64,000 bases of DNA, from assembly GCF_018977255.1 (NCBI RefSeq), contig NW_024704743.1:5954001-6018000 (forward strand), written 5' to 3'. Each line of letters starts with the position of its first letter. Positions within the stretch are counted from its first letter, which is position 1. Made by a program: the position numbers and the translations under genes. The notes beneath the pieces are model-generated. The model made no database searches. It was not told the origin of the DNA and saw only the letters and a list, made by a program, of their open reading frames with translations. The stretch comes from Callorhinchus milii (taxonomy: Eukaryota). Of the stretch, positions 3,959 to 54,109 are shown piece after piece.

Positions 3959-4186
<228 letters not shown>

Positions 4187-7589: not shown

Positions 7590-8222
7590 AGCAATAGTGC
7601 CTCACTAAAGCGCTTGTTGGGATGTTTTTCCAAAGGGTGTTGTGGGATGGAGTTCCAAAGGTGGGGGCGGAGAGACTGAAGGCCTATCCGCCAATGGTGG
7701 GGCAGGCCAGCCGGGGATGTAGAGCAAGTCCGAGCCTACTGAGCGGAAGGAGCAGACAGGTTGATAAAGGGTTAGCAGGTCACAGAGGTAGGAAGGGGCA
7801 AGGCCGTGGGGGGCCTTGAAGGCAAGGACTAGGATTTTGAACTCTATCCTCTGAGGGAGCCAGTGGAGCCAGGCAAGGGTGGGGGTGATGGGGTCACGGA
7901 GCCTGCCGCGGGAGAGAACACAAGCTGCAGAGTTCTGGATAATCTGCAACTTGTGGGGGGGGGGGGGGGGAGAGTTGGGGAGACCGACAAGCAGCGAGTT
8001 GACGTAATTGAGCCTAGATGTGATGAATGCGTGAACGAGGGTTTCAGCAGCCTGAGGGGTGAAGCAGTGACGGAGCTGGGCGATATTGTGGAGGTGAGGG
8101 AAGGCAGAGCGGGTCATGGCACGGATGTGGGGGAAAAAGGACGGTTGAGGGGCAAACAAGACGTCAAGGTTCCTGACTGGCTCAGAGAGGTGAAGGATGC
8201 ATCCTTGGATGTTGATGTTGCC
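7590..8222 (-). mobile_element. L2 LINE 3' fragment
   Basis: ORF 7605-8303 carries VRNLDVLF, HAFITSRLNYVNSLL, LQIIQNSAA, PITPTLAWLHWLP, similar to the 51.8-53.7 kb copy. Confidence 0.92.
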
Positions 8223-8406
8223 ACGTACTCTATCCACTGCACCACTGAGTCTGCCTGGCTGGGATTTTGTGGACCTACAACTGGGATTGTACCAGTGATG
8301 CAATGTATCTTTAACAGATCACAAAATACTATCATCACTAAAGATGCTATTCTTGAAACAGTAATTACTATCTAATTGCTCAATTGATTAATCGAATCAC
8401 ACACAC

Positions 8407-9108: not shown

Positions 9109-11853
9109 GCAAAAAAATGATCCGTGAGAACTCAGTTACCATTCAATTACTTTTGCTTACTGACCGGAGTCACCAAAGGTCAATTTGAAGCACCAATGGG
9201 CAGCAGCAGGAGTCTCTAATTGAAGTCTCAAATAGTCACTTGGGCATCTCTATATGTGATTCCGGTCACAGATCACAACGTGTTAAACTCCAATGTCTAC
9301 AAACATGGGAGTTTCCAACAGGGGTCACTGGGAATAGAAAACTTGGTTGATTTTTTGCTATCAGTTCACAGGCACATAAAAGGATGATGCTAAAATGTCA
9401 CCTCATCAGTAATCCTGGCACATGGAAATAGTTTAATTTCTCCTAACAATGCATACAGGACTGTTTAGTTCTGCATCAATAATGAGCATTGGTTCTCCAA
9501 TGCATTTAAACTATTACACTTATAAAAAGTTAATTAGAAAATGTACACTGGACTAAATTCTGAAAAGTCTGAATGATTTTGGATGGATGCATTCTATATG
9601 TAGCCCATTACATTGCATTAAAATGACCAACAAGAAAACATCTATGCAAACGTTAATTTAGATTTTCATACCACATTTTACACAGCTCTGCAACTGCACT
9701 GCTGCTACCACAGACGGCTTGTAATGAAAAGGAAACAGAATGCACCACCCTAAACCATTTAGTTTGTTGGATCCCTTTTCTGCCACTCCCAGTCATTGCT
9801 GCTGCTACTGACAGTTAAACGCTCATGGATGGCGATTTTTCTAGATGCATTAAATCTTTAGGAACTTTTTTCCCTGATCGCTGCTGCTACGTAAATAAAG
9901 GTAGCTGAATTGGAGGGGGGGCGAATTAAGAGAGAAGGCAGAAAAAAATCACCTGATAATTAGTTATTATTAGGTAATGGTTGAGCAGAAACACCCAGGA
10001 CGTTTAAATGTATGACATGACCGCAGTACGAGTACATCTTAAATCTCAATGCCTTTACTTAAGTCACTTATTTGCAGCTATAAACCCAACATAAAGGGAA
10101 CTTTCATTTGCATCAATTTAAAAAGCATGATGGCATATCTGTAGAAACCCTACCAACTATACAGCAAGTGTTTCCTAATTTAATCTGATCCAATCAACAA
10201 CTTTGTTCCCTCAATATAAACTGTTTCCTCCATATTCATAAAGGTAAGCAGATTAATTGAATTCATGAAAATGTAGTAGTTTGTCACAAAAGGAATTAGA
10301 CTCTTGCCTTCCCTCTCTTCTCCCTCCCCAAATGCACGGATCTATTAACTGGTAAAAAAAGGAACCATTGCTAATCCACCGTTCAAGGTTATTAATGAGC
10401 TCTGATTGTAATTCAGTTGGGTCATTATCTTGAAAGATACTGGCAGCGGCAAATTGAGCATGTAAAAGCAACTCCTAACGCCAATTGTAGAATTCGACTG
10501 ACTGTAGAATGAATGCCTGGCTGAAATCAGCTAACTCAGATCAGGCCACATATTGAACCTGATTTTACACATCTGTATGGTTTCAGTTTTATACAGATGG
10601 TAGCTTTATTAATATTAGTATCTAAGCCAAATCAAGAGTTACACTTGTTTTTTTTGTGAATGAAAGAAAAACCTAGCCAAAAAATGCCAAATGGCCTAGA
10701 ACACTAGAATAAGCTGGTGTAAAAAAAAGTCAGAATTTGTGATTATGCCAACTCCTATAATGTACGTGAATACAGATTGAATGCAAACCAGAAGAAAAGG
10801 CTCATCTGACCAGTTTCAATGCTTGAATCTTTCCTTTACAAACTATGTGCAACAGTGCACGCACACTAATGATTGGTTTTGCACAATTAGATTTTCATAT
10901 TTTATTTTGAACAGCAACCTTGGCTGAAGTATGGCACAAGCGCTCTTGTACCAAGCCGGCTGCTATACTCATCCCAAATTCAGAAGCATTAGCAAATGCA
11001 TTAAAACAACCAATAAAATGGCTCAATGTTATGCCTGTTCTACAGTTATTTTGGGTATGCAATTTGAGCATTATGTCCCAAAGAATGCCTCTTAAGTTAT
11101 TGTGGTTGTAAATCTATCTGTCAGAGGTAAATATCCTCTTATGCTCATCCAGGCAAATGCAGCCTCTGCAAGCCTCTAGCGTTTAAAAAGTCGAGCTGCC
11201 ATTGAACAGCTGTCATTTTGCTACTACTAAAATATCTTGTGCAATTCCAATGAATCCCAAGCATCCTGGATATCTGGAAACCCACACATTTAATTAAAGA
11301 CATCAAATATTTGGGAATGTCTTCCCCTCCCTGTAGAATGTGAAAGCTCTGCACGGTCTTATTATCATTTCTGAAACACTTCACAAATATGACATTCGGT
11401 GGTTTATTGCTAGAGAGACTACTGAAAATTTCTCTTTCAAAATTAATTGCTGGCAATGTCAGTATTCTTCACAATTGTAGCTGGTTATCACATCTTATGT
11501 TCGCATTACTTTAAAATTATTTTTTATATAAATGATTTAAACACACAAATAAGAGAATATCTTTTAACTCATTAACTTTACTTCAAAACTATTTTCTCTT
11601 CCCTAAGAAAAGGAAGTTCCTTGAACATTTATCACTAAAATAAACTAAGAAATACAAATAAACTAAATTAAACAATCTACTGAGAATTCTAAAATCCGGT
11701 AGCCACAAAAGAGCAGCCTAGGTTATTCAGAAATATACCATTACATTTCTTTGCAAGTAAGATTACCAGAAAGCTTAAAGAACCTATAATCCCAGTTAAT
11801 ATAGAACAGCTGTTGTATATAAATTAGTGTTAAAGAAAGGTATAACGCCTTAC

Positions 11854-12030
11854 TTGAATTCTGAGTATAAAGAGGGCCACCATTAACATGAGCTTGCACA
11901 GAAAACTGAGAAGTCACCGAAGGATTTCGCCTGTAGCCCCCAGAAGATGCCGTAGAGTTGGTGGAATTATGCCGAGAGACCTGCCGGGTCATGGTACTGT
12001 ACTGGGAACCAGGAGCCGAACCAGGGCCAG
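11854..12030 (-). CDS. ABI1: ABI1 exon 9 (177 nt)
   Basis: gcttttag|CT ... A|gtaagg; [59 protein letters not shown], phase 1-1. Confidence 0.97.
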
Positions 12031-13211
12031 CTAAAAGCATTAAAAAGGTAACAGCAAACAGGGGAAAAAGAAATGAGCATTATTCCATAATTTGAGACAG
12101 ATAAGAATCATTCAGTTGAAGGAAACCTCAAGCCAGCCACAATAGGAAAGGAGTGATGAAATTTAAATGTAACATAACATTTCAGTTTGTAAAATATTCA
12201 AGAGATCTGAACTTCTTCCGAGTTGCATTGAAACAAGTTGATGAATCATTCTTCCTGAAGACTCTTTCTATTCTGCTGTGGTTCCTGTTCATCTTACCAG
12301 TTATATAAGATTGGAATGACCGGAATAAAATCAAAGTCACATGACCTCCTGATTAAACATACTTTCCATCATAAATGTCCCAGAAGGGAGGTGCCATTTC
12401 CTGTTAAATGTGAACTTTGTTAGACATGCAGAGAGAAACATTTTAATTATTGTAGCATATCAATTTCTTATTCAGGCCGGTTCCAGTCGCAAACCTTCAC
12501 CAAATTCACTAAACAGTAATGAGCCATTAAAATTAGTAGAGGCTTTACACTTTATAAAAGCGTATATACTTTGAAATTTTAATTTCAGTTCTTCAGTTTT
12601 TTGGCTATCCAAATATCAAATGAGTTAAATGTTTTCAGATGCTCAATGTGAATGTAGATATGCTTTTATAATAGGAACGCTGAAGCCATTTTCATCCATG
12701 TAAGAATCTTAACTGGAAAATCTACAATTACTGTATATTTCACATGCAAAACATGTGACGTTTCTTCAGAAGATCCTACTCCAGGAAAGGTAGAATTGCT
12801 GCCACAAATTGTCAAAGGCATTGGATGTTAAATTTTGGCATTTTCTTTTAAAACCACAATTTAGAAGGCCTCCACACAGCCGGACACAAAAGTGGAAATA
12901 AAAGATATCGGATACAAACTAAGAGACTTTTGTTAATTGATTTTTATTTTATTTTGTAAGCTTCAGAATAACCCACTAAAACTAGGTAGGCGTCAACCCC
13001 AACCGAGACAAGGATTTCCACATGGATAAAAAATACCTTCATCTCCAGTTCCTTATACCCCATTCTTAGGCAGAATTATATCAGCAGGGTTTTACAAATG
13101 CTAACTCACTGCAACCCAACACCAATTCTGTGCATCTATAAAAACCATTGCAAATTAGCTGTGAATCAAAGCACAGATGCGTGAGTAGTTCTGAACAGGA
13201 GGTGGTCTCAC

Positions 13212-13286
13212 CTATCAAACTGCCCGCTGGCAGTGGAGGTGGTGGAGGTGGTAGGGAAAGGGATCCAGCAGGGACAGAATATGGTG
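13212..13286 (-). CDS. ABI1: ABI1 alternative exon 8 ('8b', 75 nt, proline-rich)
   Basis: ttttggtag|CA ... ATA G|gtgaga; (A)PYSVPAGSLSLPPPPPPLPAGSLI, phase 1-1; position and composition correspond to the mammalian alternative exon (..SVPPPSGAPPAPPLAPLLPVSTVI). Confidence 0.85.
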
Positions 13287-13458
13287 CTACCAAAATAATC
13301 ACAAAATGTGGTTATAACAAGCTGCTGGATAACAGTGCACAATTTACTGAATTAGAAATTACAAGGAATTGTGATACAAGTAGACAATAAAAGAAAACGG
13401 CGTTAGTGTTGGACGACAGCAGTAAGTGTACACGTCACATCATGCTAACATTTCTCAC

Positions 13459-13560
13459 CTAATGTAGGGCCACCAGGCAATGGAGGGGGAGGGGGAGGAA
13501 CATCATTCGGGAACTGAGAATACTGTGTTGACAGAAGATGGGGAGGGGGAGGGAGATCTC
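13459..13560 (-). CDS. ABI1: Candidate additional ABI1 cassette exon '8a' (102 nt, proline-rich)
   Basis: Branch-like ctgac ~25 nt upstream, gtacag|GA ... TTA G|gtgaga; open in phase 1-1: (G)DLPPPPHLLSTQYSQFPNDVPPPPPPLPGGPTL; weak pyrimidine tract; no transcript evidence available. Confidence 0.7.
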   Translation of the reverse strand, partial: EISLPLPIFCQHSILSSRMMFLPLPLHCLVALH

Positions 13561-15038
13561 CTGTACATATGCAACATTACAAAGTCAGTTTTTTTTCTCT
13601 CCAACATTCAAGGTCTAGTATCTACACATAGTCGTATCAGGTGGAAATACTGGTTTGTCAAGATTCAGGGCTTGTGGCAAACTGAAGGTGGAACTTAATA
13701 TAAACAACACCTCCACTAAATTTTGGTATATTTAACTTCTGCCTCCAGCAAAATAAAGGTAACAGGCAGAAGAAAACAGCTGAATTGTTGGTTCTTCGAC
13801 GTTTATACAATTAGTCCTGCTTCAAGAGGCACAAAGTAAATGTGATAGGGCATAGCTGACATACATGGCAGTACACATGCCTCAGGCAGCAAATGCCGAA
13901 CACAGCACTGGGATCGTCTTTCAAATACATGTGTGCTTTGTAGGCAGTCTCTATTAGCTTTACCATACTGCCACTAGTAGTAAAGCAGGATATTAAGTAC
14001 AACATTGGAACGTCATTTATGAACTGTTCAACCAAACTGAATCTCAAATTTAGAAAGAATTTGACTGCTGTTCAATTTAAAGTCAAAACATGTCCTGGAT
14101 TACACAAGACCTGCACAGCCACTAACCCCTTTGTTCCACCTTAAACATTTAATTGCTTCATGTACAATTACTAATACACGTAAGCACAAGGGTTAAACCA
14201 GTTACTCCGATTTAACCCTTTCAGCCAATTTCAGGAAACTGACACAGCATCAAGTCTTTTAGGATGGATCAAATAAAGCCCCTCCAAACTCAGTTTACAA
14301 CTCCAGTCACTGGACAATGGAATTCAAACAGTTTGGGGACAGGAAAATGAGACGAGGGGTGGAATTATGGTCTACAAAGCAATATTTCCTGAGGGAACTC
14401 AACCCCTAAAGAATGGAATTTTGGGGCTCCAGATATTGTTTATAATACAAATTAACCTGTTTCAAGTAGTTTGTTTACTTTTAAAATTAGTTTTAAATGC
14501 ACAGTATTTTTCAAATTAAACGTTTAACTTTCACTCCAATATCATCACCATCTCATGAATGCATTTCACATCACATTAAACAAAATTATTACTGAAACAA
14601 ATGCGCAGCTGAAAGAACATCCCTCCCAGCATCTGAAATCACTTATTGACAGGAATGGTCAGATTTAAGTAAGCCTAGAAATGGGTCTTGGCAACTTTAG
14701 AATCACCATTTCCACTAGCATATGGTTTCCCTCTGAAAATCTTGCTGGTATTCTGATTAATATTTATAATTTATTATTGAAATGTGCTAGGTTTGAGCCA
14801 CTATTTTTAAATGCAACCCACTGGTTCCACTGTGTGGTGATGAGACAAATGTTTGCCGATACCAGTGAAGTAAATATTTTGTGCCAATACTGTGCCTTTA
14901 TAGGTTGGTTTGACAGTGAGATTAACTTATCATCGAGCATTTCAATCAGAATATCTCTTATTCTTGTGTTAACTGATACGTTCATGTTCTAGTGCTCATT
15001 GGCTTAAACCATTCGGACAAAGATTTCTTTATAAACTA

Positions 15039-15275
<237 letters not shown>

Positions 15276-22742: not shown

Positions 22743-22757
22743 CTTGGCTTTAAGCCA
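22743..22757 (-). CDS. ABI1: ABI1 exon 4, 15-nt microexon WLKAK
   Basis: Pyrimidine tract ...ttctccctttggcaacattaag|TGG CTT AAA GCC AAG|gtaaga; peptide is the ABI1-type microexon (ABI2 has WLLRFK). Confidence 0.93.
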
Positions 22758-51831: not shown

Positions 51832-53712
51832 ACAACAACAACAAGATTCCATGTATAACGCGCCTTTCACGTCAGGAGGACGTCCCAAGGCGCTGCACAG
51901 TTGGGTCATGACCCGAGCAGGGGGGAAATGGTCAGGGTGAGGGGAGGGAAGGGAGGGAGCGAGGAGGGGGGAAATGGTCAGGGTGATTGGGGCAGGGGAC
52001 GTGGAGCAGACCGGAGCCAGAGGAACGGAGGGTACGGGCAGGTAGGGGGATAGTAGGTCGGAGAGGTAGGAGGGAGCAAGGCCGTGAATGGCCTTGTAGG
52101 TGAGGATGATCTTGAAATCAATCCTCTGGGGGATGAGGAGCCAGTGGAGGCGAGCGAGGGTGGGAGTGATGTGGTCCCGAAGCCTGGTGCGGGACAGTAC
52201 ACGAGCTGCAGAGTTCTGAATGACCTGCAGCTTGTGGAGGGAGGTGGCGGGAAGGCCGGCGAGGAGAGAGTTCCCATAGTCCAGCCTTGAGGTGACAAAG
52301 GCGTGGACCAGGGTTTCAGCCGCGTGAGGGGTGAGGTAATGCCGTAGTCTGGCGATGTTCCGGAGGTGATGGAAGGCGGTGCCAGTTGTGGTGCGGATGT
52401 GAGGGAGAAAGGACAGCTCAGGGTCGAACAAAACGCCGAGGTTCCTGACTGGCTTTGAGAGGTGGAGAGTGCAGCCTTGGACGCTGATGGTGTCGGCACC
52501 TGAGGTGCGGAGGCGCTGACGTGAGCCAATCAATGCCTTGAAGGTTGAGGTGGGAGGACAAGCGGATAGCGTGGTCGACCGTATCGAATGCTGCCGATAG
52601 GTCGAGGAGGACGAGGAGGCAGAGGGAGCCCTGGTCACAGATGGTCAGGATATCATTGGTGACCTTGACCAGGGCAGTTTCTGTGCTATGGGCAGCACGG
52701 AAACCTGACTGAAGGGGTTCGAAAAGTGAATGGGTGGAAAGGAAAGAGCGCAGTTGGGAGGCGACAACTCTTTCCAGGACCTTGGAGAGAAAGGGGAGGT
52801 TGGAGATGGGCCGGTAGCTTGATAGCTGCGACGCATCAAGGGAGGGTTTTTTCAGGGTGGGCGTGATGGTGGCAGTTTTTAAGGGAATGGGGACAGAGCC
52901 AGAGGAGAGGGACAGGTTGACAATGTCGGTGATATGTGGGGCAAGAAAGTGGAGCTGGGAGATAAGGAGTGGAGTGGGGATGGGGTCAAGGGAGCAGGTG
53001 GTTGGTTTCAGGGATAGGATGAGTTTGGTGACAGAGGGTGGGGAAACGGGTAGGAAACTGTAGGGGAGGATGGGTAGCAGTCGGAGTGTGGGAGTGAGGG
53101 GGTGGGGGGTTGGTGGATGTTGGAGGGGAAGTGACCGCGGAGCGGATTCCCTTGATCTTGGATTCAAGGAAATCCAGCATCTCCTCGCAGTGAAGGTTGG
53201 AGGAGATGACCTGCGCGGGGTGGCGGGGGGGACGGAGGAGTCGGGTTGTGGTGGAAAACAGTAGCCTGGGGTTGTTCTTCGCCTCCAGGATTATCCTGGA
53301 GTAGAAGGACGACTTGGCCGAGGCTAGAGTGGAGCGGTAAATTTTGAGGAGGTCCAGCCAGATTTGTCGGTGGACCGTTAGGCCAGATTTGACACAGGTG
53401 CGTTCAGCGGCCCGCACCTGGCTTTTCAGTGAGCGGAGGTGGGTGGTGTACCAGGGGGAGGAGCGGGAGTAGGAGACAGTGCGGGAAGTGATGGGGGCAA
53501 GAGTATCGAGTGTGGAGGAGAGGGTATTGTGGAGGAGGGAGAGAGGAGAAGAGGGGTCGGTGAGGGTTGAAGGCCAGAGGGAGAGGAGTTCAGAGGACTC
53601 CAAGGCATCGGTTAGGGATTGTGGGGGTAACTTCTTCCAAGGGCGGTAGAAGATGGTGGTGGGTCTGGTGGAGGTGGGGAGGGGGGTGGAGGTGGTGAAG
53701 GAGATGAAGTTC
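51832..53712 (-). mobile_element. L2-clade LINE, 5'-truncated, frameshifted and internally deleted ORF2
   Basis: Three overlapping ORFs with SPWYT, TTCSLDPIPT, YRPISNLPFLSKVLE, QSGFR..HSTETAL, LLDLSAAFDTVDH, VRNLGVLFD, HAFVTSRLDYGNSLL, DHITPTLARLHWL; (TTG)n tail; PQG and YADD RT motifs absent. Confidence 0.95.
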
Positions 53713-54109
53713 CACACTGACATTATAATGTCAATGTGGAATATAATTTGACATTATAAAGATGATTACAATAATAATAATAATAGGAAACAAAGTCAAG
53801 GGGATAGTACTGTGTCAAAGTATTCATGGTTAGTAAACATTGTACTAGCCTTTAACAAAGCATGGTCAAGTTTCACTAGACTGGGATTTTACATAGTCTT
53901 CATCTGCCTAACAACTCTGCAAAAATAACTCACACAAGCGATGTGCTTCCCAGAACAGCTTCCAACAGGAATGACTATTTCTGATTAGCCTGGGAGCTAA
54001 TACAAGAACTGTTTTATGATGAATACCCAAATTTATTATATTTTTACTTAGTTATAAAGGTTGACAAATGCTGGCACTTTTTTGGCTGCATATCAATTTG
54101 AAATACAAT

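Follow-up and report, generated by a model that had tools for sequence, protein, structure and literature searches.

A spliced extra cassette exon beside exon 8 of elephant shark abi1a, and its probable origin by tandem duplication

ABI1 is an adaptor in the actin-building WAVE complex; proline-rich stretches like those of its exon 8 are linked to WW domains. The human splice isoform L of ABI1 skips exons VIII to X (PMC8058658). The 29-residue exon 10, a proline-rich cassette, binds active Rac1 (PMC2866655) and depends on RBFOX2 (PMC8881802). Extra exons are known to arise by tandem duplication, which is often tied to mutually exclusive choice (PMC9013439), with further mutually exclusive tandem exons treated in PMC9741552 and PMC8373072. 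Drosophila Abi is described as using two LPPPP motifs, Abi3 as having two, and LPPPP as able to bind EVH1 (PMC4165403, PMC8789275), more weakly than FPPPP does (PMC4165403). The FP4 core is given as [FWYL]PX[hydrophobic]P, multiple FP4 motifs raise ENAH binding, and an FPPPPPPPP peptide is described in ABI1 (PMC8789275); the human-labelled protein in our set (P0192) reads otherwise. In human Abi1, Ena/VASP binding has been mapped to a non-FPPPP stretch, residues 352-394 (PMC4165403). Co-precipitation of profilin-1 needs the Abi1 proline-rich domain, which the text consulted places near the C-terminus and does not map to exon 8 (PMC7326921).

The window analyzed here, a stretch of 64,000 nucleotides of the Callorhinchus milii (elephant shark) genome (C2:5954001-6018000, within 991.5 Mb searched), holds abi1a: exon 9 is a 98% match to "abl interactor 1a" of C. 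milii and an 84-91% match to shark and ray orthologues, and ABI1 exons 2-12 lie on the minus strand. The genome-search matches included no processed copy of abi1a and two paralogues, C6 and C23, whose sequences we read as ABI2-like and ABI3-like and which have one long exon each at the exon-8 place (210 and 174 nt, respectively). The 174-nt exon of the C23 paralogue (C23:8061500-8069400, minus strand) is phase 1-1 and proline-rich, and no exon-9-like segment was found in that paralogue; a Heptranchias protein named merely "abl interactor 1-like" is built like it. Elsewhere in abi1a, the 15-nt exon 4 (22743-22757, minus strand; WLKAK), which we take to be a conserved ABI1 microexon, is optional in isoforms of C. 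milii and of sharks. Translation past the exon-10 donor (5575-5507, minus strand) yields SKFLWLSRC...LRTEK, closely similar to a 25-residue extension annotated in Scyliorhinus canicula isoform X9, and its SKF is common to all three paralogues; this intronic sequence is conserved and may serve as a splicing element or alternative donor. Long open frames within the ABI1 introns at 52000-53750 and 7600-8320 (minus strand) are presumably LINE-type retrotransposon fragments.

Between exons 7 and 9, the first-pass annotation of this DNA had marked two phase 1-1 open segments, 172 nt apart and both ending in TAG/GTGAGA, had noted an AG acceptor and a CTGAC branch-like motif for the first, and had described their C-termini as parallel. 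Each of these observations held, with exact coordinates (Table 1). The two segments, 8a and 8b, encode DLPPPPHLLSTQYSQFPNDVPPPPPPLPGGPTL and PYSVPAGSLSLPPPPPPLPAGSLI, respectively; both frames are open and both 3' ends have the stated form. The 8a acceptor reads ...ATGTACAG/G, with CTGAC at 13588, 28 nt ahead of the exon, and its pyrimidine tract is the weakest (0.57) among ten exons measured. A tandem CAG-GAG at this acceptor (13560, 13557, minus strand) makes a second in-frame acceptor 3 nt downstream possible; the contigs contain no instance of its use. Exon 8a is laid out as DLPPPP (FP4/EVH1 type), a spacer, and VPPPPPPLP, and it contains an internal repeat of the CCTCCC type (21/27 nt at an offset of 54 nt). 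Between exon 2 and the last exon there are 676 open, frame-keeping AG..GTR segments of 45-200 nt, and every one of the 13 that contain five prolines in a row belongs to 8a, 8b, exon 10, or exon 11, which argues that the 8a/8b observation is not due to chance. The 172-nt intron between the two exons contains GCATG at 13445 and ACTAAC at 13407, presumably RBFOX- and QKI/branch-like words. We rejected regulation of 8a/8b by RBFOX or QKI as a candidate: the words are single, and GCATG is not clearly enriched (4 in 3.0 kb versus 0.77 per kb gene-wide).

Table 1. Features around the 8a/8b pair of C. milii abi1a, in window coordinates, and the gene models that include 8a
Feature	Position or accession	Strand	Remarks
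abi1a exon 7	15068..15168	-	phase-1 donor; contig pieces
CTGAC before 8a	13584..13588	-	branch-point-like; putative branch point
Exon 8a	13459..13560	-	102 nt, phase 1-1; contig joints and RefSeq isoforms
Intron 8a-8b	13287..13458	-	172 nt; joint 13286/13459 in 4/4 runs
Exon 8b	13212..13286	-	75 nt, phase 1-1; LPPPPPPLP; orthologue of the single exon 8
abi1a exon 9	11854..12030	-	sequence match
abi1a exon 11	3979..4164	-	carries the conserved non-canonical Ena/VASP site (human mapping in PMC4165403)
8a-bearing RefSeq models	XP_042187909.1, 911.1, 912.1, 917.1, 918.1, 920.1, 922.1		isoforms X1, X2, X3, X8, X9, X11, X13

Thirteen sequencing runs contain this stretch, none recorded as RNA but nine of them guessed to be so, and four (X1, X3, X5, and X9, from three studies) were examined. 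Run type being a guess, splicing is shown by the joints themselves, which have canonical ends (CT..AC on the plus strand at 13559/15067 and 13286/13459). Exon 7 is joined to 8a in three runs from three studies (X1, X3, and X5), 8a to 8b in all four, and exon 7 directly to exon 9 in one (X3). A single contig in run X5 spans 7-8a-8b-9, with 8a on the main contig path, and loose ends in run X1 correspond to 13259-13286 and 13215-13241, matching 7>8b and 8b>9. The proposed tandem pair of cassette exons is thus spliced as such, and among the junctions put forward beforehand, 15068>13560, 13459>13286, and, as a loose end in run X1, 15068>13286 were recovered; 13459>12030, which would join 8a to exon 9, occurred in none of the four runs, an absence that in contigs is no proof. 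Contigs inform on joints; levels, tissues, and isoform ranking are outside their scope. With canonical ends, inclusion in spliced RNA, and skipping that keeps the frame, 8a is confirmed as a genuine spliced extra cassette exon. Because 8a and 8b are joined in every run, inclusion is additive and not mutually exclusive, and we rejected mutually exclusive splicing also in view of six RefSeq isoforms with both exons. Three inclusion patterns are shown (none, 8b, and 8a plus 8b), and the fourth, 8a alone, comes from the gene model only. In run X1 (11700-15096, minus strand), contig depth is about 37-55 over intron 7-8a, intron 8b-9, and the intron after exon 9, a joint bridges the 172-nt intron, and the intron ahead of exon 7 is at depth 2-7; in this one run, read as contigs, the surrounding introns may be retained as a block while 8a and 8b are already joined to each other.

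As an exon, 8a is already known from public gene models. It is present in 7 of the 12 current RefSeq isoforms of C. milii abl interactor 1a seen (X7 is not among these 12), together with 8b in X1, X3, X8, X9, X11, and X13 and alone in X2. Exon 8b alone is found in isoforms X4 and X5, an older RefSeq model, and UniRef V9KEH4, and one C. milii protein (P0095) has both exons with exons 9-10 skipped. The earlier suggestion that 8a is novel therefore fails, though no orthologue seen has it. Its value as a discovery is small, and our understanding of ABI1 and the WAVE complex would stay unchanged by it. Literature searches found no publication on C. milii 8a or the 8a/8b pair, nor the comparative reading in which 8b is conserved, 8a is an additional copy, inclusion is additive, and the two exons hold the sole canonical EVH1 motifs of the protein.

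By isoform, the FP4 count is zero with neither exon, one with 8a alone, one with 8b alone, and two with both; in the isoform with both (P0070), LPPPP stands at residues 278 (8a) and 321 (8b), and the protein has no other canonical EVH1 motif. The 8a motif is the DLPPPP of its N-terminal half. The first-pass annotation had matched DLPPPP/LPPPP to the EVH1 consensus, which is right for one LPPPP per exon and not for the 8a tract that parallels 8b, VPPPPPP, which starts with valine and has no FP4 match. Its emphasis on EVH1 binding likewise stands only in part: splicing does set the motif count at 0, 1, or 2, but the Ena/VASP site of human Abi1 (PMC4165403) corresponds by comparison to the exon-11 region, which is conserved in C. 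milii, so that 8a and 8b could do no more than supplement binding already in place. The motif is also mostly missing from tetrapod exon 8, so we consider binding of the profilin or WW type at least as likely. Long proline runs with a leucine also occur in formin FH1 repeats. The PPPPPPLP of both 8a and 8b and the PPAPPLP of tetrapod exon 8 resemble the VASP peptide that serves as profilin ligand in PMC8410842; this is a resemblance only. Given the constancy of PPLP in exon 8 and the dependence of profilin-1 co-precipitation on the Abi1 proline-rich domain, the predicted partners of 8a/8b would rank in the order profilin, EVH1, and WW/SH3. The most likely function of 8a, judged from its sequence, would be a splice-set rise in polyproline valency and linker length.

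It is possible, if on balance unlikely, that 8a is instead a tolerated, near-neutral lengthening of a disordered linker whose partners are unchanged, a reading compatible with duplication. The segment varies freely, with inserts at the exon-8 position ranging from 14 to 59 residues across vertebrates and FP4 present in only 6 of 114 tetrapod inserts, and the exon-11 site already provides Ena/VASP binding in the human protein (PMC4165403). Near-neutrality fits less well with an open frame and a proline run kept despite synonymous change, and with an exon that lies on the main contig path of run X5 and is joined in all three studies.

As for origin, 8b is orthologous to the one exon 8 that ABI1 has in other jawed vertebrates: over its last 14 residues it has 10-14 identities to elasmobranch (shark and ray) exon 8 and up to 11 to tetrapod (bird) exon 8. 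In a sturgeon fragment, a single exon-8-like segment continues into IGET by read-through, as happens at the 8b donor, and the other jawed vertebrates sampled have one exon-8 segment each, in agreement with the single exon that the first-pass annotation had given for human ABI1 at this position. Aligned from their exon ends, 8a and 8b share 9/14 residues and 27/43 nt over the last 14 codons (BLOSUM62 score, 60), above shuffles of 8a (p=1e-4 for residue shuffles and 3.5e-4 for shuffles that preserve proline runs), with the anchoring picked post hoc and the 14 residues of low complexity. A free local alignment gives p=0.0014 (residues shuffled) and 0.02 (proline runs kept). The spacing from proline run to donor is equal in the two exons. 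Identity by codon position is 9/14, 11/14, and 6/14 for positions 1, 2, and 3, and merely three of the nine same-residue positions have identical codons, the pattern of an old copy that would be under protein-level constraint. Likeness above shuffles together with diverged third codon positions favors an old tandem duplication, and the pair agrees in phase, adjacency, and homology beyond composition, the last over 14 codons only. The intron sequences that flank the two exons are not similar (p=0.39 on the upstream side and 0.70 on the downstream side), as expected if the copy is old, which lowers certainty without refuting duplication. Nothing in 8b corresponds to the first 19 residues of 8a, which may derive from the internal repeat.

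The template looks like a cartilaginous-fish exon 8, since PPPPPPLP is found in elasmobranch inserts (29/29) and is absent from tetrapod (0/114) and coelacanth (0/6) inserts; 8a also scores higher with the exon 8 of cartilaginous fishes (55-66) than with that of tetrapods (21-52). The usual form in the tetrapod exon is PPAPPLP, and PPLP is present in 93 of 114 inserts. On balance, we consider it probable that 8a is a tandem duplicate of a cartilaginous-fish-type exon 8, made most simply in the chimaera line, that adds predicted polyproline valency. The earlier description of an ancient exon duplication is thereby kept in part: duplication is the best reading, and synonymous divergence suggests an old copy, but one known from a single species. 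Because 8a is no closer to 8b (9/14) than to elasmobranch exon 8 (9-10/14), the duplication may be older than the separation of chimaeras from sharks, or 8a may have changed more quickly after it. An origin ahead of that separation fits equally well, given that 8b lies nearer to elasmobranch exon 8 (10-14/14) than to 8a.

Among annotated proteins, an 8a-like N-terminal half is absent from all 68 elasmobranch entries (20 species, going by the first name given for each entry, with seven X1 isoforms included), all 7 coelacanth entries, and all 118 tetrapod entries, one tetrapod protein (P0174) being left unparsed. None of 45 further tetrapod proteins, nine of them read by eye, has an insert of at least 30 residues. 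A protein search centered on 8a returned it in C. milii only among the best 120 of 131 matches, the best 8000 candidates scored among short proteins and fragments gave one match, a shark exon-8 isoform, and no 8a-like words occurred in the 50%-identity representative proteins searched. These counts refer to protein annotation, chiefly to the representatives of clusters (for the main shark cluster, 15 of its 46 members were covered); the bony-fish sample comprises a single gar isoform, in which the exon is skipped, and a small number of teleost models with no proline-rich insert, and the chimaera sample is C. milii alone. So far, then, 8a has been seen in the elephant shark only and appears to be a lineage-restricted splice detail. 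In Latimeria abi1a (P0058/P0092/P0094), exons 7 to 9 enclose a 50-residue insert with three GAPPPPP repeats, possibly an independent expansion of the same module.

These distributions bear on an older origin, in which a second exon present in stem cartilaginous fishes or jawed vertebrates was kept in the elephant shark and lost or left unannotated elsewhere, with the coelacanth insert as a potential multi-exon relic. The near-equal distance of 8a from 8b and from elasmobranch exon 8 and the divergence of synonymous sites would suit this scenario, as would the long, repetitive coelacanth insert, of which one UniRef model has only the last 35 residues, and the single long exons at this place in the C6 and C23 paralogues. 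We regard it as unlikely, since 8a is missing from all 68 elasmobranch proteins, even the seven X1 isoforms, and has the cartilaginous-fish PPPPPPLP and not the bony-vertebrate form; likeness to the C23 exon is gone once proline runs are kept (p=0.29), and none of the five coelacanth RefSeq-type proteins bearing the insert has it in part. Homology of 8a to the C23 ABI3-like exon, with which it shares a DLPPPP...QF...PPPPP[LM]P outline, was not supported by that same comparison (p=0.04 with residues shuffled). A mobile-element origin was rejected as well, the 371-nt region being single-copy in a genome search that skipped simple repeats.

A bolder proposal, which we hold to be quite doubtful, is that in cartilaginous fishes the splicing of ABI1 counts canonical Ena/VASP motifs (LPPPP, in 0, 1, or 2 copies), a device since given up by tetrapods. 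Exon 8a would then be a bivalent ligand, its LPPPP followed 18 residues on by another proline tract, and would be retained from an ancestral module of two exons that either lies unannotated within the introns of sharks or survives as the coelacanth repeats, and the 8a-8b pair would be spliced first and released via the retained flanking introns. Finally, that 8a is no copy at all and was exonised from a CCT/CCC-rich intronic repeat, converging on a proline run, is improbable: its CCTCCC-type repeat, weak acceptor, flanks unlike those of 8b, and unrelated N-terminal half would be in keeping with this, but the register from PPPPPPLP to donor and the TAG/GTGAGA end common to both exons, the concentration of divergence at third codon positions, and a single-copy region with no recognisable mobile element (simple repeats skipped) argue against it.

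Under the favored duplication, an exon 8 of the cartilaginous-fish type would have given rise to 8a, in the simplest case within the chimaera line, and the polyproline unit of 8a seemingly then doubled inside the exon. With both exons in phase 1-1, none, 8b, both, or (in the gene model) 8a alone can be included with no shift of frame. Splice choice would set the length of a disordered linker and its number of polyproline-II tracts, namely none, one LPPPPPPLP, or three, and the likely effect would be higher avidity for polyproline readers at the WAVE complex. Candidate readers are profilin-actin first and then Ena/VASP EVH1 and WW/SH3 domains; these partners, like any tissue regulation of the choice, are predictions. 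Binding by 8a/8b would come on top of the exon-11 Ena/VASP site, which is the same whichever choice is made between 8a and 8b. If the binding is real, the pair would illustrate, in compact natural form, how motif valency can evolve through exon duplication in a subunit of the WAVE complex, and the coelacanth repeats would be a possible parallel.

Compared with known systems, the C. milii gene models come closest: the RefSeq abi1a isoforms contain sequence identical to 8a under names with no remark on duplication. The exon 8 of jawed vertebrates corresponds to 8b in place (between exons 7 and 9), in being frame-keeping, optional, and proline-rich, and in having PPLP near its end, whereas in C. 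milii there is a pair of exons with as many as three proline tracts. LPPPP is a feature of cartilaginous-fish exon 8 that the tetrapod exon mostly lacks. Exon 10 of ABI1 is a precedent for splice tuning of the proline-rich region (PMC2866655, PMC8881802), in a different exon, and those results do not extend to exon 8 or 8a. A further related system is the link between Abi and Ena/VASP, with the human site at 352-394 and not in exon 8 (PMC4165403), the LPPPP motifs of 8a and 8b being candidate EVH1 ligands. Like the tandem duplicated exons described in PMC9013439, 8a and 8b are neighboring, homologous, of the same phase, and probably tandem copies. In contrast to mutually exclusive tandem exons, the two copies in C. 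milii are joined together in all four runs, and their inclusion is additive.
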